Source of the DNA: Nitrospirota bacterium
Lineage (GTDB): Bacteria; Nitrospirota; UBA9217
Assembly (NCBI GenBank): GCA_963740085.1
Contig: CAVUCU010000001.1
Span: forward strand, 1,248,001 to 1,312,000
DNA length: 64,000 bases
Reading direction: 5' to 3'
The notes under the pieces were generated by a model. It was given only the letters and a program-made list of their open reading frames with translations, did no database searches and was not told where the DNA came from. Positions 5,494 to 19,267 of this stretch are shown piece by piece (the stretch's first letter is position 1; every line of letters starts with the position of its first letter). The translations under genes and the position numbers were made by a program.

Positions 5494-6831
5494 TTACAAA
5501 ACCGCTGTGGAAAGCGGGCTTGCCTTACTGCCGGTCCCCATCTTGAAATTAAAGATACCCTTAAGATGATACTCTGGCGGTGGGACCAGTGTTGAATCAT
5601 TGTCGGTTAATGTAATATCAAAATCACCAGTTGCCTCGGTTGCCGTTGAACCAGGTGAAAAGGAAATGGTGCCCTGACTCACTTTTTTCAGCGTGGATCT
5701 CTCTCCATTGAAGACAAGGAATATACCGGGGAATTTCTCGTACTGAGAATTGTCTTCAATGGCAAACGTTTTGCCACCGATGCTCGGCATGACACCGTTG
5801 TCCGATTTCTGAATGTCGATCCTGATGACGGTCCTGAAATTTTCATCCCAGACATTTTCCGCAACATTGGCCTGTATTGACCAATACGCATCATTGTTCG
5901 TTGAATAATAGAAATTTGGCTTTACAAGCCCATACTCATCATCAGTGACCGTTAAGTAGTTGATATGGGCCAGATTCTGGTCGACAGTTGCGGCAGTTAT
6001 TGCCGAACTGGTTCCGGTTGTTTCACTTGCCGTTGTACTGCCGGATGAGGCCTGACTGCTTCCGCCTCCGCTGCCGCATGCTGCCAGGAGCGCGACCAGC
6101 ACCGCGGTCATGAGCATCTGTTGAAGGTGTATTCCGTGTTTTATGTGATGGGGCTTGGCATACCCTTCTTCAATGAGCACCTCACCAAGCTTTTTCCGGG
6201 ACCCGGTCTGTTTGAGGAGAGCATCATCAAGTTGTCTGCGCGAGATAGTGCCTGAAGAGACCAGTATCTCCCCTAGCTTAAGCGGGCCGGGCACCGGTTT
6301 GGCATTGCCCTGGTTCTGTTGAAAATCGAGGACGCCGTACAGCTCTCGTTTCGTTAACAGGCCCTGGCGAACCAGAACCTCGCCGAGCTTCTCGCCGCTT
6401 CTCTTTTGATCGGAAATCGCGCGCTCAAGTTGTTCGCTCGTGATTCGTCCTGCCTGAACGAGCAGGTCGCCCAGCAGTCGGCGAACGCCCGCGGCAATCT
6501 TGACCGCGTCCTCGACGCGGTCAAGATGTTCCTGCACAGAAAGTGCTACCTTGATATCCGCAGGATCAATAATATTCATCCTGACCAGTACCTGACCAAG
6601 AAGTTCATTGGTTTTCTTTTGTTCCTCCAACGCGGCTTCGACGTTTTGCCGGGGTAGAAATCCGCCATCAATCAGGATCTGTCCGATGAAGCGCTTATTT
6701 TGTTTTTGTTTCAGCATAGGTAGCTCCTTTGCGTTGCTTACAGCCGCGCTTTGCTTCTTGTACGGAGATTCCGCCATCTTCGTGCCGCTAAAACGTCTGT
6801 CTGCGCGATCTCCATTTTCAGAGTATATCAT
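5494..6831 (-). CDS. Multi-MshEN (c-di-GMP-binding motif) protein fused to an internal lipoprotein signal and an extracytoplasmic domain
   Basis: Six xLGxxLxxxGxxxxxxLxxALxxQ-like repeats, then MLMTAVLVALLAA-C-GSGGG and a Ser/Thr linker. Alternative start 6717 has an AAGGAG RBS. Confidence 0.75.
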   Translation of the reverse strand: MIYSENGDRADRRFSGTKMAESPYKKQSAAVSNAKELPMLKQKQNKRFIGQILIDGGFLPRQNVEAALEEQKKTNELLGQVLVRMNIIDPADIKVALSVQEHLDRVEDAVKIAAGVRRLLGDLLVQAGRITSEQLERAISDQKRSGEKLGEVLVRQGLLTKRELYGVLDFQQNQGNAKPVPGPLKLGEILVSSGTISRRQLDDALLKQTGSRKKLGEVLIEEGYAKPHHIKHGIHLQQMLMTAVLVALLAACGSGGGSSQASSGSTTASETTGTSSAITAATVDQNLAHINYLTVTDDEYGLVKPNFYYSTNNDAYWSIQANVAENVWDENFRTVIRIDIQKSDNGVMPSIGGKTFAIEDNSQYEKFPGIFLVFNGERSTLKKVSQGTISFSPGSTATEATGDFDITLTDNDSTLVPPPEYHLKGIFNFKMGTGSKASPLSTAVL

Positions 6832-6860: not shown

Positions 6861-9800
6861 TCACTGGCCGCTGAACCACTTCACGGCGTCGCGGACGCTC
6901 ACTTGGTCAAACTTCATTCTCATCTTGACAAACGGCCCCTCGCTGGTGAAATCAGCCTTCGAGAAATCGCGGTCTTTAAAACCATTGAAATTGTATCCCA
7001 CACTTATCCAGAGGTTCCTGCCGGCGTTGAACCCGACCGATGCGCCGGTCCCGTATTTTTCCTGGCGCAGGCTTAGGGAGTGGAGCCGCATGCCGCGGAG
7101 ACCAATATCCCACTTCTTCGTGACATCGAAACGGCCCTCCAGCCCGACCAGGTCAGTGTATCCCCGATAATCGTTCTCATCGATCCGTTCCTGGACGTAT
7201 TTTGAAGCGTACTGCAAAGAAACCTGGGTCCTGATAGTCGTCTTGATGTTCGCAACAAGGTTGTTGACAAAGCGCTTGTTGTCGTCGTAGGTTGTTATCC
7301 CTCCATGCTGCTCTGACTGTATCAGATCCAGCCGGTCCAGGATGATGACGCGGGTGTCGAAGGGGCGGTGCACAAGGCTCAGACGCAGATCGCTACTGGC
7401 TTTCTCCTCCCCGGCAAGGATGTTGCTCCGGAACGTCTGCAGTCCCAGCGCAAGAGCGAGTCCCTCCCGCACCTCGCCGTTCGCACCCATGAACAAACCG
7501 AACTTGCGTTCGGAATCTGAATCGCGGTTTTCCACCCTCGCGGTCCATGACCATTTTTCCTGACGATATCCTACGCCAAGAGAAGTCGCTGTAAAGTCCT
7601 CGCTGCTCCCCGATGCGGGAGGAACGTTGGTGTTGACAGAATAGGTACCCGTGTTATGCAGCGTCTGGCTTCGATCCAGACCGCCATCCACGCTCCACTG
7701 CTTCGTGATCTGCCAGGACTGCTTCAGTCCAGTGGTGGAGAAAAGCCGCACGCCGTTCTCGGTCGACTGCTGTTCCATGGAGGACCCGATCTGGCCGCCG
7801 GTCCACGGCGATGTCCTGATCCCGATGCGCGTGGTCTCGGTGTCTATCGTGGAACCATTCGTCCACTCCTGGTCGGCGAAGAACGTTGATTTCTCATTGA
7901 GCTTGTAGTCAGCCCCGACGGTCGTCCTCGTCGGGAAATCGACGTTGTTGTTCGCTCCGATGGACTGATCGCGACTGATCCGGACCGCAGTCTTGTCGGT
8001 CACCTGGGCCCTTATGCCGGAGAAGAGCTGGTCGGACCGTTGCGTCTCGCCGAAGCTCTGTGTCCCAGCAGTGCTCAGGGTGTCATCAGCCTGGCGCAAA
8101 CCCGCCGTCACCGTATACCGTCCCGCAGTGTAATTGCTTCGCACCTCGGCCATGTCGCGCACCGCGCCGGTGGATAAATTGTTCTGCTCGAACACCTCTC
8201 CGCCAATGGTCCACAGTTTGTTGATCCGATAATTGAGGTCCGCTCCGATCTTCCGGGTGCCAGTCTCGCTGCCACTCTGCTGACCAAGCCCGAACCCGCC
8301 TTGCTGTTCCCGAACGTAAGCCTTACCCTCAGCTTTTTCCGAACGGTGCTGCAACTCCGCGAGAAATGCGTCACCTTGGCTCGTGACGCCCGCCAGGTCC
8401 GTCTTTGTCGTGGCGGCCTCCGCCCGGAGCAGGTCATACTCACCGAGCTTGACCTTCGCATCGACCCCTTCGAGGTTGCCCGATCCTCCCACCTGGCCCT
8501 CATGAACGTGGGAGGCGCCGACCTCTAAGCGGCTGTCGAGGAACCGCGCGGCAGCGCGGCCGCCATAGTTGTATTTCGCATCCTCGTCGTCAAAAGATTC
8601 ATATTCCGCAACAATGAAAATTGGATTGAAATTCCCGTCACGGCTGTATACCGGCATCTTGAAGAAAATGGTACCGGCATCGTAGTCGATAGTGTAGTCC
8701 AGGTTGTTTGTCAGCCGCTGGCTCGAAAGAATGACCTCGCTCTTGAACCGGTCCCGGGTCTCGATCGTGATCGTTTCTGAATTGAGCACGATATTCTTCC
8801 GTGACAGGTGGTAAAGTCCCGAGGTACCGTCGCCAGAGTACTCGTCCCGCACGTGGGCCTGGTTTGTATCCGCCAGAAAAACCGTGTATTCGTAATCCTT
8901 GGTCTTCATCTCCGACTTGAACCCGGTGAAGTTCCGGTTGTACCGTGACAGCTCGGTGATGGAAAGACCAGCATTAAAATCACCGAATAGGGCATAGAAC
9001 TGGTCGCGCTCCAGTTTGATGTAGATGCGCTTAGCGCTCGCCGCATCGTTGCCCTGAAGCGTACCATCGCCGTACAGGGTGTAGTACTTGTTCGGATCGA
9101 TGGTCTGATACAGGCTCGGCTGGTCAGTGCTGTCTGTTTTTTTACTGTCATAGGCCAGCGTGAGAAGCCACTCTCCCTTGATCCTGCCCTTGGCATAGAA
9201 GGCCAGGCGGTCCTCTTCGTAGAACTTGTCATCGCCTCCACCAGAAGTGAAGGTCTCCATGTTGCCCTTTACGGTATCGTATCCCACCGTGCCTTCGGCA
9301 AGGCCGACGAGGACCCAGTCCCGGTCCCCGGGTTTCAGCCACGTGCGGATTTCCTCAAATCGTTCAGCGTCAAGTTGCACACGAACAATCGCTTCTCCTG
9401 TCTGCGTTGTCGGAACAAGCTCGATCATCGCCACGCCGTCCTCGCCGACAAGATACCGGTATCTATCAGTATTCAGTGCAATGAGCGGCGATTGTTGAAG
9501 CTTATCAGCGCTCTGCTTGGGGATATACGGCGGATCAAGAAAATAATCGGCCCGCACTCCCTCCCTGGCGGGATGTCCATCCTTATCCAAGAGTTGTATG
9601 GCAAGAATTATGGGGGTTTTGCCATCCGCAATGAGCTTCGATCTCTCGGGCAACAGTATAGCCTTTGCCGGCGGTCCTGAATAGTGTACGGTCCGCTGCA
9701 GCCGCTTGACCTCGAAATCGGCGCCATCAGAGAGAACGAGTTCGAATTTATTGTCTCCCTCCTGTAAATGTATCCCGCGCCAGAAGCTGATGGCCACAGT

Positions 9801-12800
9801 GCCGTCAGATTTTTTGATCATTCCTTCATAATGAAGGAGATCCACCGCGTCGCCATTCAAAAAGAGTTTCAGTTTCTGGCTCGGATCGTGCTTTATAGCA
9901 ATTCTCAGACTCGCAATAGCAGGGTGATAGCCATCAACAGGCCAGAGCCACTCCAACCCCGGCTCTGCCTTTTCAACCCAGGCGGCATCGTAGTCCGGCA
10001 TGGTCTTGCCGTCGCCGATAGGCGTCAGGGACTCTGATTGCGGGTTCTCTAGCCAGATCTCGCCCTCGGACAAGCCCGTAATTGAAACGGACTTCACGCC
10101 ACTCGTTTCTTTGTCGTTGCGTACATAGTCCCAAGCGGAATCCTTGCGAGTGTCGACTCTGAACTCAACACGGCGGTTCAGCGCCCGTCCCTCTGCGGTC
10201 TTATTGGTCGCAACCGGTTCGTCAGGTCCCTTCCCGACGATCATGATCTGATCCGGGGCGAGCCGGAGTGTCTCGGCAATGACCTTGGCGACCGTCCTGG
10301 CGCGGCCTCGCGACAGCACGTAATTATCCGGGAACTCCTTGCTTGCCCTTGGGCGAATACGGTTGGAATCGGTATGACCGGTAACGGTAATATGCTCGAT
10401 ATTTCTTGATTTCATTTGTTCAATGATCTTCGATATTTCTTTCTGATCGCTCGAAGACAGGTCCGCCTTCAGCGAGGCGAACTTGGGATGGAATATGGCA
10501 TCGGGTTCGCTCATCTGACGCTTTAATTTGTAGCGGACAAGGTTCGTGTCAGCCACGGGCGTCTTCGCTCCTTGTGCTGCCGGAGTGTCGAAAACCAGGA
10601 ACGACTTCGTGGGCAGGTTTCCCTCAGCGCCTTGCGCCGGCACTGTCGCAGAGAACATGAGGGAACCCTCCCACCCGGCAGGCCGATCGCCCAAACGGTA
10701 GGTCAGGACGCCGTCGCTGAGGCCAGGATCAGGGACGCTGCCGTCAGCCAGAAAGCTGCTTCCCGGTGAGTATGTTACGCCGTCCGGCATCATTACGATC
10801 AGTCGGAGGTTTCGTACGGAGACCGATCCCACATGCAGTTTGGCTGAATAGGCGATGGTGTACTGGCAGTTCGCGTCGGGGAGACTGCAATTCTCATTCA
10901 CGAACGGCACCATGGCCGTATAGTCGTTATGGTCTTTCGCGTCCGGCCTCGAAGTCCCGGTCTGGTTCGTGGCCAGGGAATTCGTCTTCACTTCGCCGAA
11001 GCAATGCTCGCCGAAGATACACGTTTGGGCTGTAGCAAGGGAAGCCTCCGGCTCCCCTGCATCAACATGGTTAATCAAATCGCTCCTGGTCGTGACCAGG
11101 GATGTCTGCAGCTCAAGGCCGACTTCGCCGGTCTGTTTCGCTTTCGGAGGACGGAGCGCCAGATGGAAATCGGCCCTCCACAAGGAACCACCTTGCAAAT
11201 CCACGAACTGCGAAAATGACCTGCCCGCGAAACGCGTGTTATCCTCGCACTGCGCGGGCTCGTATTCCTCGGGCACCGTGACGGTATCAAGCTGCACCAC
11301 ATGAGTCCCCGGGAGAACAGCCGCGAAATGATACATCCCATTCTTGTCGGTTATGACATAGGATCCGTCCTCAAGGAAGATACGGACCCCTGCAATACCG
11401 TGCCCGTCTTTACCGCAGCCTTCAAGGATCCGGCCGACAATGGTCGTCCTGCTCAGAAAGAGATCCTCGGTCACCAGGACCGTAGCCGTCGCAATGTTGG
11501 ATACCACGCCGGAGGAGCCGTTCGCCACAGCCGTGTTCAAGGCCTTTCCAAGGTTAGCGCCGGCGCCCACTTCGGCCACGTAGGTGATGTCCGCTTTTCC
11601 CGCTGCGATGAGATTGCCGACCGTAAAGGTGACGCTCCGGCCGTCCTCGGAGATGACAGGCTCGGTCGCGGGAACACTGTTCAGGCGCACTGACCCTTTC
11701 CGGTACCGGAAACCGGCCGGCAGCCGGTCAGTAATGGTCACCCCCGGCGCCGGTGCGCTCTCGTCGATGTTTTCCACCGTAAGTTGATAGGGAACAAAGT
11801 CACCAATTGCCGCCGAATCCTTGCCTGCGGATTTGATGAGATAGAGCCGGGTGCTCAACGGGTCAATGGGAATATCGATATGGATCGCCGGCCCGGCGTT
11901 CACCAGGAACTCCTCACTGCGCGAGCCGGGCTCGGCAATGGCAAAAGGGGCTCCCGGCAGGGCCTGCAAAACACGGGTCGCGACGTTCGAAGGAGACCGA
12001 AAGCCTGAGGGCGGCAGGACGTCAAGGCGATAGCGGCCCGGGCTGATAAAGGGGAACCGGTATCCGCCTGGTGACATGGAGTACGCCCTGCCACTGCTGT
12101 CCACTGCCGTGCCACCAGTGATGAGGTTGGACGGAAAAGTCGAGATGCCGTCATCACCGTATACGGTCGCGGGATTACCCGTAGCGGTGTTCACCAGGGT
12201 GACGATCGCCCCGTCGACCGGCTGACCAGTCGTGCTGTTAAACAAAACGCCATAGGGATCGACCAGCGCAGTCGTTGTGTGGGAATCCGTCGGGTCCGCC
12301 GGGTCCACGTAGAGCGCTGTAATATGCGAATCGTTCACGAGATTCAGAAGACCGTTGTTGTCAATCTTTTGATCGGAGCTGGATTGTATGACCCCCATAA
12401 AGACGCCGGTGTTGGGTCCAGTCTCGGTCAGCTTGAGCACTTCTGTGTCCCCGGTCTTGTCGTCATGAACTGTCACCACGACGGTTTCCGCGACCGCGGG
12501 ATCGTTATTCTGGTCGCCGTCAGTCAATCGGATGAAGACCGGCTCGCCGGTGTGATACTGCGTCGGCGAAATGAGCGACAGCGGCTTGGCCAGATCGAGC
12601 CTTGCGGACGATCCTGCCGGCATCGGCGCGTCAAGAGGAACAAACGGTCCGGCCAGGTTTCCGCTGGGGCTATAGGATGTTGAATGAACGACAACAGTCT
12701 GTGCGCCCAGCGCATCAGGCGCGTACTGGAGGAATTCTAAGACCGCGGTAGTCCGCTGGACCATGGACGTCACTGACGCCGCAGGAGACGTTACGGTCAC

Positions 12801-13046
12801 CGGACTTCCCGCAGGCCCGTTTGTATACGTCGCGGTTGCGACATTGGTGATGATGGTGCCGGATGGCGTGATGGACCAGCCGACGGATGAGAACAGGATG
12901 ATGAAAAGGAATGATAACAGAGAAATAACTAGAGAAGAAAAAATTGGGGCCGCTTCAGCGAACGGGCGCAACGCGACCGTGCCTTCATCCTCATGGGTGG
13001 AGGTACGGTCGATGTGCGCGTCATGTGTGCCTAAGCGGTCCCTCAT
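6861..13046 (-). CDS. Giant outer-membrane protein with DUF11 and OmpA-like domains and a predicted C-terminal beta-barrel; putative pilus anchor or usher
   Basis: Signal peptide; complete DUF11 domain (LIK...ITDRLP...LNTA); OmpA motif GHTDS...LSRGRA...NRRVEF; long C-terminal run of amphipathic beta-strands. Confidence 0.8.
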   Translation of the reverse strand: MRDRLGTHDAHIDRTSTHEDEGTVALRPFAEAAPIFSSLVISLLSFLFIILFSSVGWSITPSGTIITNVATATYTNGPAGSPVTVTSPAASVTSMVQRTTAVLEFLQYAPDALGAQTVVVHSTSYSPSGNLAGPFVPLDAPMPAGSSARLDLAKPLSLISPTQYHTGEPVFIRLTDGDQNNDPAVAETVVVTVHDDKTGDTEVLKLTETGPNTGVFMGVIQSSSDQKIDNNGLLNLVNDSHITALYVDPADPTDSHTTTALVDPYGVLFNSTTGQPVDGAIVTLVNTATGNPATVYGDDGISTFPSNLITGGTAVDSSGRAYSMSPGGYRFPFISPGRYRLDVLPPSGFRSPSNVATRVLQALPGAPFAIAEPGSRSEEFLVNAGPAIHIDIPIDPLSTRLYLIKSAGKDSAAIGDFVPYQLTVENIDESAPAPGVTITDRLPAGFRYRKGSVRLNSVPATEPVISEDGRSVTFTVGNLIAAGKADITYVAEVGAGANLGKALNTAVANGSSGVVSNIATATVLVTEDLFLSRTTIVGRILEGCGKDGHGIAGVRIFLEDGSYVITDKNGMYHFAAVLPGTHVVQLDTVTVPEEYEPAQCEDNTRFAGRSFSQFVDLQGGSLWRADFHLALRPPKAKQTGEVGLELQTSLVTTRSDLINHVDAGEPEASLATAQTCIFGEHCFGEVKTNSLATNQTGTSRPDAKDHNDYTAMVPFVNENCSLPDANCQYTIAYSAKLHVGSVSVRNLRLIVMMPDGVTYSPGSSFLADGSVPDPGLSDGVLTYRLGDRPAGWEGSLMFSATVPAQGAEGNLPTKSFLVFDTPAAQGAKTPVADTNLVRYKLKRQMSEPDAIFHPKFASLKADLSSSDQKEISKIIEQMKSRNIEHITVTGHTDSNRIRPRASKEFPDNYVLSRGRARTVAKVIAETLRLAPDQIMIVGKGPDEPVATNKTAEGRALNRRVEFRVDTRKDSAWDYVRNDKETSGVKSVSITGLSEGEIWLENPQSESLTPIGDGKTMPDYDAAWVEKAEPGLEWLWPVDGYHPAIASLRIAIKHDPSQKLKLFLNGDAVDLLHYEGMIKKSDGTVAISFWRGIHLQEGDNKFELVLSDGADFEVKRLQRTVHYSGPPAKAILLPERSKLIADGKTPIILAIQLLDKDGHPAREGVRADYFLDPPYIPKQSADKLQQSPLIALNTDRYRYLVGEDGVAMIELVPTTQTGEAIVRVQLDAERFEEIRTWLKPGDRDWVLVGLAEGTVGYDTVKGNMETFTSGGGDDKFYEEDRLAFYAKGRIKGEWLLTLAYDSKKTDSTDQPSLYQTIDPNKYYTLYGDGTLQGNDAASAKRIYIKLERDQFYALFGDFNAGLSITELSRYNRNFTGFKSEMKTKDYEYTVFLADTNQAHVRDEYSGDGTSGLYHLSRKNIVLNSETITIETRDRFKSEVILSSQRLTNNLDYTIDYDAGTIFFKMPVYSRDGNFNPIFIVAEYESFDDEDAKYNYGGRAAARFLDSRLEVGASHVHEGQVGGSGNLEGVDAKVKLGEYDLLRAEAATTKTDLAGVTSQGDAFLAELQHRSEKAEGKAYVREQQGGFGLGQQSGSETGTRKIGADLNYRINKLWTIGGEVFEQNNLSTGAVRDMAEVRSNYTAGRYTVTAGLRQADDTLSTAGTQSFGETQRSDQLFSGIRAQVTDKTAVRISRDQSIGANNNVDFPTRTTVGADYKLNEKSTFFADQEWTNGSTIDTETTRIGIRTSPWTGGQIGSSMEQQSTENGVRLFSTTGLKQSWQITKQWSVDGGLDRSQTLHNTGTYSVNTNVPPASGSSEDFTATSLGVGYRQEKWSWTARVENRDSDSERKFGLFMGANGEVREGLALALGLQTFRSNILAGEEKASSDLRLSLVHRPFDTRVIILDRLDLIQSEQHGGITTYDDNKRFVNNLVANIKTTIRTQVSLQYASKYVQERIDENDYRGYTDLVGLEGRFDVTKKWDIGLRGMRLHSLSLRQEKYGTGASVGFNAGRNLWISVGYNFNGFKDRDFSKADFTSEGPFVKMRMKFDQVSVRDAVKWFSGQ

Positions 13047-13099
13047 ACAGTTCGATCAATTTCCCCGCCCTTCATGATGACGGGGAAGGTCATGTCTCC

Positions 13100-14200
13100 T
13101 TACTGGACAACAACCTGATACTTGATTACGGCGGAATTTCCTTGCGCGACCGTCAGGCCGGAAACCGTTACTATGTTTGTAGTAAAATCAGCGCCGTCAG
13201 CATCGCCGGTGTTCGTCTTGCAAACATTGTTCACTACGATACCGGACCCTCCGGCGCAAGGGTTGGAGGGGGCAACACCATCATCGTATTGGGTCCTGAA
13301 TGCGATATTTCCTGCCGAGATCATGGCATTGAGGTTGTCAGTAATTGCTACATTCGACGCATCAGCACCACCCGCGGCGTTTGTTACTGTCACGGTGTAC
13401 GTGATCACTGCTCCGGGTATCGCTTTGGGGCTCGCAAACAAGTTTACTGGATCCCAATACACCGTGGCCGTCTTGCTCACGGTCAAGCCCGCGGCAGTAA
13501 TGGTAAAGGTGCCACTTGCGGAGTGTTTCCCGTCACGCGCCACGTCGCTGGCAGCGCTCCCTGCTGCATCTCCGAATATTGTCATTACACAGATTGAGAT
13601 TGGCAGCCGTTTGTGTCCCGAGCTGTCTCATGTGGATGCGGTCAAGGTCCCCGCGTCTACGGCTGTCGCCAGAAGGTCGTAACCCGCGATTGAACCATTT
13701 GTCGCGGTTGCCGGTATATCACCGACGATCAGTACGGTAATGCTTGCGCCTGACGCGATGTCACCGAATGTGCCGGCAGTAGCGTACAGTGTATCGCCGG
13801 CGTCCCATTTGCCGTCATTGTTGTTATCGCGATAAATATTCGGAGTGGTCAACGTCCAGGTGTTCGTCGCCTTCGATACGGGTGACAGGGCAAAGCGCAT
13901 GGCCGTATTGCTCATATTCGAGACGAGGAACTGGATCGCCTGGAAGGTTGAACTCGGTGCGCTGGTCACATCGCTTTGTTTCGTAACAGTCAAATAGATC
14001 ACTCTGTCAACCACAAAGGTGACGGTGTTCCCCGGCACCGCGGTTTGCGGTACCGTGCCGACAGTATAATTCACTGTCGCCTGATTCGAGATACTGACTC
14101 CCGCGGCCGTATTCGCCGCCTGCGCGAACTGCGGGACCGCCACGGCAATCGCCACAAACAGCAGAATTGCCGCTATCTTATACATACTTTGCTTTATCAT
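13100..14200 (-). CDS. DUF11 secreted protein, putative major pilin; interrupted by an in-frame TGA at 13628-13630, probably a sequencing artefact
   Basis: ORFs 13628-14200 and 13100-13585 share a frame and together align end to end with paralog 14902-15936; strong AGGAGG RBS. Confidence 0.75.
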
Positions 14201-14386
14201 TGTTTCCTCCTAGTTTTTAATTAATTACGTTATTTAAATTGTGTTCCCTTTTTGTTTGCAGCCTGTTTATATCTCTTTTCACCTCCTAAGAATCATTCGC
14301 ATAGTGCACCTCCGCTCTTAGGTCCTTGAAAATCAGCATTTGTTCATCCATAATCTTATCCTCCAAATAAATAATTTAGAATGCGT

Positions 14387-14890
14387 CTATTTAATCCTTG
14401 CCTTGAATGAAACACTACCTGTACCACCAGCGGGGAGTGGCTTGGTCAGGGTCCATCTAATACCGGTGTAGTCTTCCGCCCCGGCCTGGCGCACCATTCC
14501 CTTCGCGTTTTTGACCATCAGTTTCTCCGGTGCGCTGTAGGTCTTCCCGCCGTCTGTTGAAAACTCGATGCGGGTGTTGCTCCCTTCTACGCTGTTGTCG
14601 AGATAGGTCATATTCTTGTCAATAGGATTCGTGATCACGACATCGGTGGCGGGCTGCTTGCCGGTGTTGGTATAGTGCGTCGTGAAAACCACCGTGTCTC
14701 CCGGCACCGTCGCCGCCGCTTTGGCGACATCGACCCGCTTAACGACCTTCTCGCCCTTTTCATTTCTTCCCGCAACCTCTACTTCCGCAACGGACTTGAG
14801 CGCTATGGCACTTTTCTGCTGTGTCCAAGCGGCCATCGGCGCCAGCAACACCAGCGCCAAAACTACCTGTAATATTCTTTGCATTATCAT
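14387..14890 (-). CDS. Single DUF11-like domain secreted protein; putative chaperone
   Basis: Signal peptide; PGDTVVFTTHYTNTG...VVITNPI...VSFKARIK. Confidence 0.7.
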   Translation of the reverse strand: MIMQRILQVVLALVLLAPMAAWTQQKSAIALKSVAEVEVAGRNEKGEKVVKRVDVAKAAATVPGDTVVFTTHYTNTGKQPATDVVITNPIDKNMTYLDNSVEGSNTRIEFSTDGGKTYSAPEKLMVKNAKGMVRQAGAEDYTGIRWTLTKPLPAGGTGSVSFKARIK

Positions 14891-14901
14891 CTCCCCCTTT
14901 T

Positions 14902-15936
14902 TTATTTGATCTTAACTTCAAAAGTTATCGTTTGTATCGGCGACGCGCTCGTCAGATTTCCGAGCTTCACGGTCACAGTATTCGGTGTCGTCACCCCCAC
15001 GTCCCCGGCGTCGGTGTCGGCGATATCAGTAAGGGCTGCATTGTTCAGCCGGAGTGAATTGGCGATATACACCGTGTTCAACGGCAGCGGGTCGCTGATC
15101 ACCACGTTGTTCGCTGTGCCTCCCCCCGATGTGGCCGCAACAATCGCGTACCGGAGCGTCGCCCCCGGGAGGGGCAGGCCTCCGCCCCATTGGTCAAGTA
15201 TTGTAACGGTCTTGCTTAGGCTCACGTTCAATGCGGCAACGGATATTATGTTGAAAGCGCCGCTCGCCGAGTGCTTTCCGTCCCGCGCTCCGTCGCCGGC
15301 AACGCTTCCCGCGATGTCCAGGAACACCGTGTCGATACCCGATGTATTGGGCCCCGCGGTCTGCGTGGAAACATTCAAGGTTCCGGCATCGACCGCTGTC
15401 GCCACCAGGTCATATAGCGCTGATTGGCCGATCGTCAGACCCGCGGGCGCGTCCGCGACGATCAATACCGTGACCGATGAGTTTGATACAAGGTCCCCGA
15501 ACGTGCTTGCGTCGCTGTACAGGGTGTCTCCCGCGTCCCAGGTGCCGCTGTTGTTATTGTCTCGAAAGATTCGGACATTGTTCATGGTCCATGTGTTCGT
15601 GGCCTTCGATACGGCCGAGAAAGCGAAGCGCAGGGTCGTATTGCTCGTATTGGAGACGAGAAACGACAGGGCTACGTTGCTGGAGGTCGGCGCGGTATTC
15701 ACATCCGAGTTCTTGGTCACAACCATGTTGATCGCCCGGTCTACCATGAAGGAATTCCCGGCCGTCGCAGTATGGTTCACGCCGCCGCTGAAAAAACTGA
15801 CTGAGACGGTGTTTGTGATGACCATCCCGGCAGGTGTGCCCGCAGCCCGGGCATTACCCGCTGCAAAAAAGAACCCGGCAAGGAATACGATGATTCCCCA
15901 GCATGCCGCGTAATATATTTTTTTTCTGTTTTGCAT
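14902..15936 (-). CDS. DUF11 secreted protein; putative minor or adaptor pilin
   Basis: Signal peptide; mature N-terminus AGTPAGMVITNTV; C-terminal LSK...PGATLRY...ISDPLP. Confidence 0.75.
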   Translation of the reverse strand: MQNRKKIYYAACWGIIVFLAGFFFAAGNARAAGTPAGMVITNTVSVSFFSGGVNHTATAGNSFMVDRAINMVVTKNSDVNTAPTSSNVALSFLVSNTSNTTLRFAFSAVSKATNTWTMNNVRIFRDNNNSGTWDAGDTLYSDASTFGDLVSNSSVTVLIVADAPAGLTIGQSALYDLVATAVDAGTLNVSTQTAGPNTSGIDTVFLDIAGSVAGDGARDGKHSASGAFNIISVAALNVSLSKTVTILDQWGGGLPLPGATLRYAIVAATSGGGTANNVVISDPLPLNTVYIANSLRLNNAALTDIADTDAGDVGVTTPNTVTVKLGNLTSASPIQTITFEVKIK

Positions 15937-15990
15937 AGTCGTATTCGTTCAGCCTTGTCCTTCACCGGCCGGGACAATGCCTTCAGTGAC

Positions 15991-18900
15991 TTAGTTGATC
16001 GATACCTTAAACTTCACGGTAAAGCTTGCGCCGCCTCCGTTCAGCGTCCCGCTGGGTTTAATGCGCACCCCTTTTACGAGAGGATCGTAACCGATGGTCG
16101 TAGGGGGATAGACGTACGGCGGACCGCCGCCGGGTTGGTATGAATAGGAAACCGCGTTCGCATAGGTCCACGGCGTCGTCAGGCCGCAGCCACTGCACGA
16201 GAAGGTCACGGCGCTGCCGGCGGTATCAACGTACATGGTCATATTGGCAGGGATAACATCCGTGATGGCGATCGAGTCCGCGTCCGCCACGCCGCTGCCG
16301 TTGTTGATCACCTGTATGGTATATTGGACCTCCGCGCCGGGAATCGCCTTTGCGGACGCCGATACGCCGTTGATGGGATCAGAAATGACCGAAGACGATT
16401 TCACAACCATAAGAGACGGCAAAAGCGATACGTTGAACGTACCGACGCCTGTGTGAGAAACCGTGCCTTCGGTACCCTCCGGAGCCGTTACGGAAACGGT
16501 CCAGTTTCCGGAAGGCGCAGGCGCCGTGAGCGGGAAAGCGTATTCGAACGTTTTGGTCGCGACACCCGAGTCCGCGACCTGGGGCATGGCCACAGCGTTG
16601 ATAACGGTCACGTTGCCCGGGTCCTTGACGGTGATCATCGGCTGCGTCGTCGCGTTGTTGCTCGCGTTGATATCGAAGCTCCCGAAGGGGTCGCTCACGA
16701 CTGCCCGCAGGTAGACAGTGCCGGTGGTAAATGATGCGGGTATGGTCACTAAGGGATAGGCCGTGCTGTATGCAGTGACGCTGTTCACATTTATGACGGT
16801 CGCCGAAGGCAGATCGACATACGATCGGTTCCCGCCGTTTATCGGATACACCGTCAGGGCGCGACTGATGCCGGTGTTCGTAATGGTGAGGGTCCATTTG
16901 TTCCCCTGAGCGCAGGTCTGTGGCGGCGAGTAGGGCAAGTTGAACGTCTGAAGGTACACCGTACCTCCGGCGGCAAAGGCAATACTCTTCGTCTGAGTAA
17001 GGCTGATTGCTCCACAGGTGAGATTAACCCTTACGTTTCCGGTCCTGCCGTTTGTACAAGACATATAGAGGTTTACCGGAACATTATTTGAATTTGGATC
17101 GAGGGTCATGGGTAACTGCATAGCAACATCTTGTGCCCATATCTGAGATGAAGTTGCAGCGCCAATCGTGATAGTGCTGTTATTACCCGAGATGGATCGT
17201 GATATCGGCCCGGGCGCTCCTCCGCCTGCTCCATAGAGGTATAGCTGCTTGAGGCCGGTGACGGGGACCTGCGACTGGGAGACGGTGATCGCAGGCGCCG
17301 CTGGTGTGGCACCCGTCCCCGCGGGGTTCGTGATAGTGGCGGTGTTGTTGATAAGGGTACCAATTGCGGCCCCCCCTGCGATCGTCGTGGATACGACGAT
17401 TGCGGCGGTCCCGTTGGCAGGAACCAAGATGTTGGACGCCGTAAGCACTTGCCCCACGATAGTACATGTCGCACCCGCAGGACAACTTATGACCGAAAGA
17501 TTTGTCAGTGTCGCCTGGAACGTGTCCGTCACCGAGACACCGGAGACTGCTGCACCGCCGGTCTCGTTCAGCGTGATCGTATACGGTATAACGTCGCCCG
17601 GATTCTGGTCCCCACCGTTCGTATCCGTCCAAGTCTTTGTTGAGGTGGAGAGATTGGAGTTAACCGGAATGTTCACGGTAACGCTATCATTGTTGGAGTT
17701 GTAGTCCGTGATGGAACCCGGGATGACGAGGCTTGCGGTGTTGCTGAGCAGGCTGGGCGCCGGTGCGCTTACCGTACCCGTTATCGTATAGGTCACATAC
17801 CCGTACCGGGGAAGGTTGGCGGTGGTGTTGATGTTGTTCCCGCTCCCTGAGGCAGCGCCGCAGGTTGCACCTCCTGATCCCGCGCAGGTCCAGGCAACGC
17901 CGGTTATGGCCGCCGGCACGGTGTCTTGGATCCCGACTCCGGTCGCTGTCACGTTGTTGGGACCGGTATTACTTGCGATAACGGTATATCGGACAGTGTC
18001 CCCCGCTGACGCGGTCGTCGTCGAACCGCTCGTCACGTCCAAGAATGTCTTGGTGATGGCGAGGTCGATTGCGGTTGTCGTGTTCTGGTTGCTCACCAGG
18101 AGGTTGCGGATCTCATGGTAGTTCGTGGAGCCGCCGGTGCTGGCGGCGTAGCCGATCATGAGCTTCTGGGCTGTCGAGATCGCGGGGAGCGCCTGGTTCG
18201 TGATCATCTGCGTATAGACAAGCGGGGAGCCGTAGCCGAACGCAACCCAGACATTAGCGACCGGGTTTGGCGCCGGGCTGATCTGTATACGCACCTTGCG
18301 GTAGCTCACACCGGTCTGGGAAGGCCTGGGTGATCCGTTGTACCACAGTGAGCCGTTGTTGGCAGAGGTGGCTATCCAGGGATAAGAATTTGTGTTCGAC
18401 GTTTGTCCGATGGCGCCCCCGCCGAAACCGACGACGGAGCCGCGAATTGTCACGGTGTTGGGTCGTTGTGAAGTGCCATTGTAGCGTCCTTCACAGCCAT
18501 AGGCAAAGTTACCGAATTCATCGACGCCGATTCCCACATAGCCGCCGCTGATTCCCGGAACACTCGGGTTAACCGGACTGCACGCAGCAGTAGACAGTTT
18601 CTGTGCATAACCCAGGGAGCCGCCGAAGGCGCCTATGTTGAAGGGACTTGCCCCACCATCGAACAGGTAGACGCTATAGCCGTCTGCGCCGTTCCCGCCC
18701 CAAGTGGCGTAATCAAACTCGATCAGGAGCCCGGCGCTCAGGTCAAACGTGGTGGTGTTATAGGCAAAACCGGTCTGGTTACCTGTGGCGTTGGTCAGGC
18801 GCAGCCATCCCTGTCCTGCCGGATCAATGGCGCCATTTCCGGTCAGAACAGCGGAGCTGGGATTTCCGCCCAAGATCCAGCCCGTACTGTTCGTGTCGGT

Positions 18901-19116
18901 CATCGGCGCATTGATGATGATCGAGGCGGAGGCGTTTACGGCAAAACAGACCGCAATCACCGTTGCCAGGACGAATGAGCAAAGTATGGATCCAGACTGC
19001 CGGAAATAGGTATTCCTGCAAGGAGCTGAGACCTTTCCCTGTGGCAAAGCTTTCTTTGTTCCGATAAAGTTCATCTCACGTTGTCCCGAATAATCTCCCG
19101 CTGATCTTTTACTCAT
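15991..19116 (-). CDS. L-type lectin plus DUF11 repeat adhesin; putative pilus tip
   Basis: WLRLT...GADG...GGSLGY...GVDEFGNF...AASTGG legume-lectin-like motifs, followed by three DUF11 domains. Confidence 0.75.
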   Translation of the reverse strand: MSKRSAGDYSGQREMNFIGTKKALPQGKVSAPCRNTYFRQSGSILCSFVLATVIAVCFAVNASASIIINAPMTDTNSTGWILGGNPSSAVLTGNGAIDPAGQGWLRLTNATGNQTGFAYNTTTFDLSAGLLIEFDYATWGGNGADGYSVYLFDGGASPFNIGAFGGSLGYAQKLSTAACSPVNPSVPGISGGYVGIGVDEFGNFAYGCEGRYNGTSQRPNTVTIRGSVVGFGGGAIGQTSNTNSYPWIATSANNGSLWYNGSPRPSQTGVSYRKVRIQISPAPNPVANVWVAFGYGSPLVYTQMITNQALPAISTAQKLMIGYAASTGGSTNYHEIRNLLVSNQNTTTAIDLAITKTFLDVTSGSTTTASAGDTVRYTVIASNTGPNNVTATGVGIQDTVPAAITGVAWTCAGSGGATCGAASGSGNNINTTANLPRYGYVTYTITGTVSAPAPSLLSNTASLVIPGSITDYNSNNDSVTVNIPVNSNLSTSTKTWTDTNGGDQNPGDVIPYTITLNETGGAAVSGVSVTDTFQATLTNLSVISCPAGATCTIVGQVLTASNILVPANGTAAIVVSTTIAGGAAIGTLINNTATITNPAGTGATPAAPAITVSQSQVPVTGLKQLYLYGAGGGAPGPISRSISGNNSTITIGAATSSQIWAQDVAMQLPMTLDPNSNNVPVNLYMSCTNGRTGNVRVNLTCGAISLTQTKSIAFAAGGTVYLQTFNLPYSPPQTCAQGNKWTLTITNTGISRALTVYPINGGNRSYVDLPSATVINVNSVTAYSTAYPLVTIPASFTTGTVYLRAVVSDPFGSFDINASNNATTQPMITVKDPGNVTVINAVAMPQVADSGVATKTFEYAFPLTAPAPSGNWTVSVTAPEGTEGTVSHTGVGTFNVSLLPSLMVVKSSSVISDPINGVSASAKAIPGAEVQYTIQVINNGSGVADADSIAITDVIPANMTMYVDTAGSAVTFSCSGCGLTTPWTYANAVSYSYQPGGGPPYVYPPTTIGYDPLVKGVRIKPSGTLNGGGASFTVKFKVSIN

Positions 19117-19238: not shown

Positions 19239-19267
19239 ATTATACGAAGAATAAAAATAATAGTCAA
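19239..19267 (-). promoter_or_regulatory. Sigma70-type promoter of the DUF11 operon
   Basis: TTGACT-N17-TATAAT on the minus strand in an AT-rich context. Confidence 0.7.

Follow-up and report, generated by a model that had tools for sequence, protein, structure and literature searches.

DUF11 domains cut before their asparagine strand in a Nitrospirota operon suggest a sortase-free, self-ligating surface fibre

Results

An operon of six open reading frames

The window analysed here, a 64,000-nucleotide (nt) stretch from a Nitrospirota soil bacterium of the GTDB lineage UBA9217 (assembly GCA_963740085.1, contig CAVUCU010000001.1, positions 1,248,001 to 1,312,000), contains between positions 6,861 and 19,116 an operon of six minus-strand open reading frames (ORFs), arranged head to tail and encoding secreted proteins. 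In this operon a domain of the DUF11 family is cut in two: its larger part, with a lysine and, in most cases, an aspartate, closes the C-terminus of several of the proteins, and the strand that carries the third landmark residue, an asparagine, stands at the mature N-terminus of others. We propose that the two parts may join between chains to build a surface fibre, and we name the genes after the positions that their products would hold in it. The intergenic gaps, followed from the adhesin gene to the anchor gene, measure 54, 11, 186 and 53 nt.

15991..19116, minus strand: putative tip adhesin, 1041 amino acids (aa)
14902..15936, minus strand: 344-aa subunit ('adaptor' type)
14387..14890, minus strand: 167-aa secreted single-domain protein
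13628..14200, minus strand: N-terminal half of the shaft subunit, 190 aa (signal peptide, donor strand and N-domain)
13586..13630, minus strand: interruption of the shaft gene, with a TGA in frame at 13628-13630 and then a short stretch out of register
13100..13585, minus strand: C-terminal half of the shaft subunit, 161 aa (conserved linker and acceptor module)
6861..13046, minus strand: putative outer-membrane anchor protein, 2061 aa

The initial annotation treated the major (shaft) subunit as a single ORF. In the window it is read as two, of 190 and 161 aa, which are the halves of one paralogue of the 344-aa subunit with an in-frame TGA between them.

The C-terminal modules stop at the F strand

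Complete DUF11 domains in this operon carry Lys, Asp and Asn in that order, and the motifs that the initial annotation quoted for these residues and for the protein termini are all present in the genes to which it assigned them, on the minus strand. The adhesin consists of a signal peptide, two complete DUF11-type domains (residues ~347-482 and 491-600) bearing all three residues in the motifs LAITK / IQDTVP / LSNTAS and STK / VTDTF / LINNTATI, and a C-terminal acceptor domain; the Pfam DUF11 model matches it over three stretches with 72.8 bits (cut-off 24.6). The 344-aa subunit is built of a signal peptide with an AxA motif, the donor strand, an N-domain that belongs to no Pfam family and a C-terminal acceptor, and the interrupted shaft subunit follows the same plan. 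In the anchor a long signal region is followed by an N-terminal donor strand, immunoglobulin (Ig)-like stalk domains, an OmpA-like domain and a conserved C-terminal region, with Pfam matches to DUF11 (33.4 bits, cut-off 24.6) and to CarboxypepD_reg.

15994..16434, minus strand: acceptor module of the adhesin; DUF11, with Lys (LMVVK) and Asp (ITDVIP), ending at the F strand with FKVSIN, the Asn strand missing
15781..15843, minus strand: donor strand of the 344-aa subunit, residues 32-52, AGTPAGMVITNTVSVSF..., with Asn42; 35.6 bits
14905..15240, minus strand: acceptor module of the 344-aa subunit, residues 233-344, with Lys242 and Asp282, ending FEVKIK
14054-14119, minus strand: donor strand of the shaft subunit, residues 28-49, ANTAAGVSISNQATV; 30.9 bits
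12816..12869, minus strand: donor strand of the anchor, residues 60-77, TPSGTIITNVATATYTNG, directly after the hydrophobic signal segment; 12.4 bits
11475-11840, minus strand: complete DUF11 domain of the anchor, residues 403-524, motifs LIK / ITDRLP / ALNTAV

To locate the cut we relied on an alignment (A1) of 74 of the 154 homologues of the 344-aa protein found by a word-indexed search, from which a C-domain profile (columns 228-344) and a donor profile (22 columns of the mature subunit N-terminus) were taken; a further profile, made from anchor orthologues and their complete DUF11 domains, was too narrow for mapping donors. In the 344-aa and 161-aa proteins the C-domain profile aligns over its full length and right up to the C-terminus, and in the 167-aa protein up to the last residue but one. 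In complete domains it stops at the F strand, beyond which the adhesin runs on to ...LLSNTASLV... and the anchor to ...KALNTAVANG... plus one further strand. The NCBIfam model for isopeptide-forming fimbrial domains, TIGR04226, gives the same picture: it covers positions 19-104 of 123 in the 161-aa piece, where the match ends at residue 160 of 161, and reaches positions 118 and 120 of 123 in the complete domains. That the C-terminal domains stop just before the Asn strand, as the initial annotation had read from the letters, is what both alignments return, and it applies to four proteins, the adhesin, the adaptor, the shaft (whose 161-aa piece has Lys in LTVSK and Asp in ITDNL and ends YQVVVQ) and the 167-aa protein, all of which end exactly at the DUF11 F strand. 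The last of these, encoded at 14387-14890, had gone unmentioned in the initial annotation.

The missing strand was sought in every ORF of 100 aa or longer, 8231 in total, of the genome, an assembly of 3.46 Mb that is 98.5% complete. The donor profile matched only three times (independent E-value (i-E) <= 0.1), each time at the N-terminus of a protein of this operon, namely the 344-aa, shaft and 2061-aa proteins for which the Asn strand had been claimed; their mature N-termini share the pattern xxGxxIxNxA. In the same scan, C-domain matches that end at the end of an ORF were found only in this operon.

General domain models see these modules only in part. Pfam DUF11 scores the 161-aa piece at 20.1 bits, under its cut-off of 24.6, and does not match the 344-aa protein, and it does match 55/74 subunit homologues (E <= 0.01). 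Searches against PDB sequences brought nothing relevant for the complete DUF11 domains of the adhesin or for the subunit profile A1, and the C-domain profile (A3) found PDB entry 9IFR at an E-value of 2.3 with an unreliable alignment end. PADLOC had no match for the 167-aa or the 344-aa protein. The entry 9IFR is informative in another way. DUF11 has recently been renamed CLIPPER, and this crystal structure contains an intramolecular isopeptide formed by Lys715, Asp748 and Asn806 (PMC12617251); given this Lys-Asp-Asn bond, the three landmarks singled out by the initial annotation are the right ones.

The reactive residues and the cut are conserved

Across A1, Lys242 is present in 74/74 sequences and is one of four invariant columns out of 344, Asp282 in 73/74 and Asn42 in 54/74, at a mean column identity of 36% for the subunit family. 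The donor Asn is kept in 18/18 shaft-type and in 36/56 adaptor-type homologues. An AxA cleavage motif lies 11 residues ahead of the donor Asn (A29 in 66/74, A31 in 73/74).

An exhaustive profile search of 1.84 billion cluster representatives returned 17468, 7256 and 2010 matches at E <= 1e-3, 1e-10 and 1e-30, counts that include many giant tandem-DUF11 proteins. Among the best 150, which we analysed, 78 are of canonical size and pairwise less than 50% identical. Lys and Asp are present in every one of these (78/78 each) and the donor Asn in 72/78. All 78 end at the F strand, 65 of them exactly, nine within three residues and four with an unaligned tail showing the same pattern; as a control, 72 proteins in this set have a length of at least 600 aa, and only two of them, both of the subunit type, end in a truncated acceptor. 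The conservation of the three residues proposed at the outset is borne out for Lys and Asp, and for the Asn of shaft and anchor proteins, and is only partial for the Asn of adaptors (36/56).

Three adaptor-type homologues (P0045, P0059 and P0062) carry Cys-Pro instead of Asn-Thr at the donor position (IVCPVTV), which may reflect either a different chemistry or simple loss. Elsewhere in the subunit, the linker that precedes the Lys strand of the acceptor (residues 206-232 of the 344-aa protein, within 14905-15322, AGSxxGDGARDGKHSAxG) is highly conserved (G220 74/74, S223 72/74, H222 63/74), and an equivalent highly conserved stretch precedes each acceptor module; in the adhesin it is the His-containing EGTVSHTG, which resembles the stretch before the subunit acceptor. 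The N-domain of the subunit (15322-15780) has two invariant asparagines, N96 and N99 (SNTSNT), and a first-strand Lys in only 43/74 sequences; its DxNxxGxWDAGD loop looks like a calcium site.

Polarity and synteny across relatives

Under the polarity put forward in the initial annotation the adhesin has an acceptor only, the pilins have both a donor and an acceptor, and the anchor has a donor only. This holds in all relatives examined. The adhesins (the window plus 14 orthologues) keep the acceptor Lys and Asp in 15/15 and all end at the F strand, and the donor profile matches none of the 15. Subunit C-domains in the loci described below have Lys and Asp in 33/33. The anchors (the window plus 16 orthologues) have the donor motif with its Asn right after the signal segment in 17/17, and an open acceptor in none.

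A sample of 301 genomes of the phylum includes 23 that encode the subunit, the named records being Nitrospirota metagenome-assembled genomes (MAGs), and all 23 fall among the 55 genomes that have the anchor C-terminal region. The 16 loci that were fetched bear out the operon as a syntenic unit: all 16 have the anchor, the 167-aa protein and one subunit or more, 14/16 have at least two subunits, and 14/16 have the adhesin. The adhesin gene follows the anchor gene in one locus (L042) and probably in a second (L041), and none was seen in the stretch of a third (L040). Further afield, a Thermodesulfobacteriota MAG has a subunit, a 166-aa ORF, a second subunit and a large protein with a donor-matching N-terminus, and the cultured Lysobacter sp. 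A03 has, in this order, a 167-aa-like protein, a subunit, a 1608-aa outer-membrane protein with the donor ATIENTASVSY and no OmpA domain, and an adhesin. A more distant relative, G021, encodes a 1018-aa subunit with donor and truncated acceptor at opposite extreme ends, the position that they keep across subunit sizes from 344 to 1335 aa.

A word-index search for fusions of 603-2000 aa, a weak test, gave none; the exhaustive search then yielded P0249 and P0276. In P0249 (696 aa), a natural fusion that joins one subunit head to tail to another, the N-terminal donor (34-53) is retained. Between its first C-domain (246-367) and the next N-domain (390-556) lie 22 residues that include IANT and nothing like a signal segment, and the C-domain at the end (577-696) is truncated again. 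The outer-membrane protein of G021 has a donor, an N-domain and a DUF11 domain completed in cis by its own following Asn strand. At the level of sequence, this is exactly the arrangement that complementation in trans predicts for neighbouring chains.

Known pilus machinery is absent

The initial annotation noted that no sortase or PapD/PapC genes lie next to the operon, and this extends to the whole genome. Sortase (PF04203), usher (PF00577) and PapD-like chaperone (PF00345, PapD_N) models had no match in it, and the controls were positive (control genomes for sortase, E. coli for the usher). None of the six ORF products contains an LPxT[GASN] motif or, within its first 80 residues, a lipobox, and Pfam scans of the six found neither the TasA/camelysin family nor the FimA/Mfa family of type V (Bacteroidota) pili.

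The adhesin and the outer-membrane anchor

Two functional labels of the initial annotation find little in the domain searches. The adhesin was called a lectin; its residues 92-337 give a weak L-type-lectin-like Pfam match of 22.4 bits against a cut-off of 78.3. The anchor was called a barrel protein, a label that no family match backs.

10173-10481, minus strand: OmpA-like domain of the anchor, residues 856-958; PF00691, 52.8 bits against a cut-off of 27.2
6864-9269, minus strand: conserved ~800-aa C-terminal region of the anchor, residues 1260-2061; no known family

The last 800 residues of the anchor are the most conserved part of the system, with a mean column identity of 59% in their alignment (A2), in which the region shares 43% identity with its Lysobacter counterpart and 27% with that of G021. 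At least 1324 anchor homologues occur in Nitrospirota, Deltaproteobacteria, Acidobacteriota and Proteobacteria, with no more specific name than 'OmpA family protein'; the OmpA-like domain itself is optional, being absent from the Lysobacter protein and several other homologues. A Pfam scan of the last 1092 aa found no translocator barrel family, only YfaZ at E 0.046, and comparison of A2 with the E. coli usher FimD (hhalign) gave a probability of 0.2%. The composition of the C-terminal region differs from that of the stalk, with 1.3% proline against 7.3%, no cysteine, more aromatics and more windows of alternating hydrophobicity, and a strand ...GPFVKMRMKF lies near its end. Two homologues, P0340 and P0346, carry the same C-terminal region behind a DUF11 stalk of 4300-4800 aa, which suggests an autotransporter-like layout with the N-terminal stalk outside the cell; in such a layout the donor strand of the anchor would sit at the distal tip of the stalk.

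Anchor N-termini (12870-13046 in the window, and those of the 16 orthologues) have 35-90 residues before the hydrophobic segment that are partly conserved (MRDRFxT...), an extension that we take to resemble the extended signal peptide regions of large autotransporters. A second locus of the same genome (G000:C4:288246-302701) encodes a tandem-DUF11 protein of 3090 aa and, besides a 490-aa ORF, a protein of 1245 aa that shares the first ~300 positions of the conserved C-terminal region of the anchor (124.5 bits). The split signature is absent there, the 3090-aa protein lacking an F-strand ending and the 1245-aa protein a donor.

A fourth acceptor that has lost its reactive residues

The 167-aa protein is a secreted single DUF11 domain (26.2 bits, cut-off 24.6) that is cut at the F strand, ends FKARIK and has no donor strand. 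At its catalytic Asp position it has Asn (VVITNPID), a replacement shared by 14 of the 16 aligned orthologues, in which the Lys position is K in nine, R in two, T in four and V in one; both reactive residues decay together in this family, which is without a donor counterpart. The protein itself is retained in 16/16 loci, in Lysobacter and in G021, and is read as an acceptor that is always present but would need no lock. It shows no significant similarity to FimC. As an acceptor that lacks the catalytic Asp it would cap donor strands reversibly, and might serve as a length regulator or as a chaperone acting the other way round from PapD, a role that we infer from sequence only.

The break in the shaft gene and the surroundings of the operon

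Compared with two orthologues, the shaft gene of the window has two extra bases and one extra base within ~35 nt, which put a short stretch out of register, and in its other listed occurrences in the 301-genome sample the gene is uninterrupted. A 767-nt contig from an independent soil metagenome run, 95-99% alike, bridges 13100-13789 and has six letters fewer in 13590-13630; with its differences applied, the shaft frame is open for 364 aa. The break may be either strain-specific or an assembly error. In one other locus (L037, G218:C8:232500-248000) the anchor gene is in ~10 ORF pieces between intact neighbours, which looks like the indel errors of a long-read assembly and calls for caution in reading the TGA of the window.

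The shaft gene is preceded by an AGGAGG ribosome-binding site, the strongest in the operon, within the 186-nt gap to the previous gene. Upstream of the operon lies a promoter-like site that is a consensus match only, the region having 8 such sites against 7.1 in shuffled sequence.

19239..19267, minus strand: promoter-like site, TTGACT-17-TATAAT, 11/12 consensus, ~120 nt upstream of the adhesin start

The flanking genes are unrelated (ABC transporter ATPases, a tetratricopeptide repeat (TPR) protein, an M23 peptidase, a homologue of gyrase/topoisomerase IV subunit A and a CpXC protein). A 445-aa gene with a weak DUF4388 match (5494-6831, minus strand) follows the anchor gene after 29 nt; we weighed whether it might be a sixth member of the system and rejected this, as it occurs only in the three closest of the 16 loci. 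Opposite the 344-aa subunit gene runs an antisense ORF of exactly 344 aa (14879-15913, plus strand); similar ones in other loci are, like it, taken to be shadow ORFs of GC-rich coding sequence.

Discussion

A model for the fibre

We propose that the operon encodes a fibre built from a DUF11 (CLIPPER, CnaA-like) domain cut in two. In each acceptor module, located at the extreme C-terminus of a protein, strands A to F would supply both the reactive Lys and the catalytic Asp. The Asn would come on the G strand, probably accompanied by the strand after it, from the N-terminus of the next mature protein. In the resulting chain the adhesin would occupy the distal end, the 344-aa and shaft subunits would form the body, and the N-terminus of the anchor would close the chain at the cell. 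Insertion of a donor would complete the fold and bring its Asn beside Lys and Asp, whereupon a Lys-Asn isopeptide could arise unaided by any enzyme, in the manner of complete CLIPPER domains. That strands are complemented in trans, between chains, we regard as probable; the reading as a whole, a self-assembling surface fibre with the covalent lock included, we hold with less assurance, as somewhat better than an even chance.

A number of results weigh against this model. In adaptors the donor Asn is replaced in 20 of 56 (S in 12, C in 3, G in 3, F in 1 and D in 1), and these losses do not covary with loss of Lys or Asp in the adhesin, which keeps both in 15/15; the Asn is likewise missing from 6/78 representatives. 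A mutual-information scan (179 sequences, an effective number, Neff, of 125) shows no enrichment of donor/C-domain pairs (22/2240) over donor/N-domain pairs (20/3045). The donor match of the anchor is weak (12.4 bits, i-E 0.053). Its C-terminal 800 aa match no family in Pfam and no solved structure in the PDB, whether searched as a single sequence or as profile A2; for a barrel only the composition speaks, a crude guide, and the OmpA-like domain between stalk and C-terminal region complicates the topology. Lastly, the shaft gene is interrupted in the window as it stands.

Alternative readings

The case for joining between chains is best seen against the possibility that each protein is a circularly permuted monomer, whose own N-terminal strand completes its own C-domain with an intramolecular bond, so that no fibre forms. 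Discontinuous CnaA-type domains do exist, as in the Pfam family GBS104-like_Ig, where residues 137-211 and 587-717 of one chain belong to one domain (PMC12617251), and covariation cannot separate cis from trans in a homopolymer. Yet the adhesins have an acceptor and no donor (15/15) and the anchors a donor and no open acceptor (17/17), and both keep the reactive residues without a partner in their own chain, which favours trans. So does the placement of donor and acceptor at the extreme ends of a chain whatever lies between them, most clearly in the 1018-aa subunit of G021, and so do P0249 and the G021 outer-membrane protein, in which an acceptor is completed by the strand that follows it and the N-terminal donor is left free. 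In the mutual-information scan, moreover, 41 of the 150 highest pairs couple the linker, residues 206-232 with the invariant G220, to the N-domain; it is thus unlikely to be a long free tether. Completion in cis therefore strikes us as the least probable of the three alternatives considered here, and a poor bet.

If strands are exchanged between chains, they might still do so without a covalent bond, as in chaperone-usher or TasA fibres, with Lys, Asp and Asn serving only in folding or packing. Not every DUF11 domain has the bond (PMC12617251), and the 20/56 adaptor donors without Asn imply that this joint can work without it. The invariance of Lys and Asp in a family with a mean column identity of 36% and only 4/344 invariant columns speaks for a chemical role, as do their joint decay in the 167-aa family and the fact that the same triad is bonded in the solved CLIPPER domain (PMC12617251), and we consider a purely non-covalent fibre unlikely. 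About as unlikely, or marginally less so, is a modular adhesin of fixed length, in which a single adhesin, adaptor, shaft and stalk form a four-part chain and the shaft does not polymerise. Nothing that we computed demonstrates the entry of a shaft donor into another shaft acceptor; the gene order equals the proposed chain order, 2/16 loci have a single subunit gene, and the single-chain stalks of 4300-4800 aa in P0340 and P0346 show that a long stalk is possible without polymerisation. On the other hand, the shaft combines a donor (Asn 18/18) with an acceptor that has Lys and Asp, so that self-addition would be unhindered, its gene has the strongest ribosome-binding site and an upstream gap of its own, and P0249 is a natural tandem fusion of two like subunits. 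We accordingly keep to the covalent fibre joined in trans as our preferred account, in which the shaft may polymerise.

A broader proposal, which we put forward only tentatively and think rather doubtful, is that these loci represent a widespread, undescribed class of diderm fibre made of pre-cut, self-ligating CLIPPER subunits, in which the anchor would be both secretion pore and covalent anchor and the 167-aa protein an inverse chaperone. Such a chaperone would hold donor strands until their handover, and irreversible bond formation would drive assembly without ATP.

Were the model correct, diderm bacteria would possess a covalent pilus pathway that needs no sortase, usher or type IV machinery. 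A function would be assigned to large unannotated families (2010 representatives at E <= 1e-30 for the subunit, at least 1324 homologues for the anchor), and the adhesin-adaptor, adaptor-shaft and shaft-anchor joints might offer orthogonal donor/acceptor sets for protein engineering.

Comparison with known systems

The principle itself, donor-strand exchange combined with an isopeptide lock, is already published. In BsaA of Clostridium perfringens, a TasA-family protein, the N-terminal strand enters the neighbouring subunit and N35 is locked to K74 with E56 as catalyst, a bond that is intermolecular and autocatalytic and that mutants support (PMC11580942). The proteins described here share with BsaA, at the level of sequence, an Asn on the N-terminal donor and a Lys with an acidic catalyst in the acceptor, and the absence of a sortase; they differ in fold family, in having Asp rather than Glu as the presumed catalyst, and in host, BsaA belonging to a Gram-positive that uses the SipW signal peptidase and type IV pilus-associated secretion (PMC11580942), and in the outer-membrane anchor and the tip adhesin found here. 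The archaeal threads of Saci_0406 join the N-terminal alpha-amine of Asp24 to Asn57 of subunit n+2 (PMC9715654). They too combine donor-strand complementation with covalent links between subunits and do without chaperone and usher, and differ in being archaeal, in having no Pfam domain and in showing no similarity to the present proteins (PMC9715654). Haloarchaeal tafi have been modelled as donor-strand fibres of tip, adaptor, shaft and anchor with no covalent link (PMC11821415).

The closest relative by family is CLIPPER itself (DUF11, PF01345), which has Lys, Asp and Asn in the same order. There a single chain supplies all three residues, and the bond forms within it. In the complete domains of our adhesin and anchor the residues likewise lie together; in the C-terminal modules they do not, the Asn strand being found on the N-terminus of another protein. 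New here are the cutting of a CnaA-like CLIPPER domain ahead of its Asn strand, a two-membrane host, a dedicated outer-membrane anchor family and an accessory acceptor. The giant single-chain DUF11 filament of Litorilinea is a different thing. In the literature, supplementary files aside, a search found no split-DUF11 fibre and no diderm donor-strand fibre with an isopeptide lock, and TIGR01451 led to nothing relevant; a bacterial-surface review of October 2026 lists, in its available part, only the chaperone-usher, type IV, sortase (monoderm) and curli routes (PMC13721041).

The proposed fibre would resemble chaperone-usher pili from the fold to the order of parts: in them an Ig fold minus its last strand is filled by the N-terminal extension of the next subunit, and a two-domain tip adhesin, adaptors and a major subunit are followed by a terminator that ends growth at the cell. 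In those pili, however formed, the joints are non-covalent and made with the help of an usher and PapD, for neither of which this genome has a gene, and their accessory protein donates a strand, whereas the one encoded here would accept it. With sortase pili the proposed fibre would share covalent, Lys-linked subunits of the CnaA/CnaB type, a tip adhesin and a basal anchor, and it would differ in its diderm host and in dispensing with the class C sortase and the LPxTG motif that those pili need. Tag/Catcher pairs (isopeptag, SpyTag/SpyCatcher, SnoopTag/SnoopCatcher) are man-made splits of isopeptide domains into a strand and a remainder that religate spontaneously; the operon described here would be their natural counterpart, with the split serving assembly.

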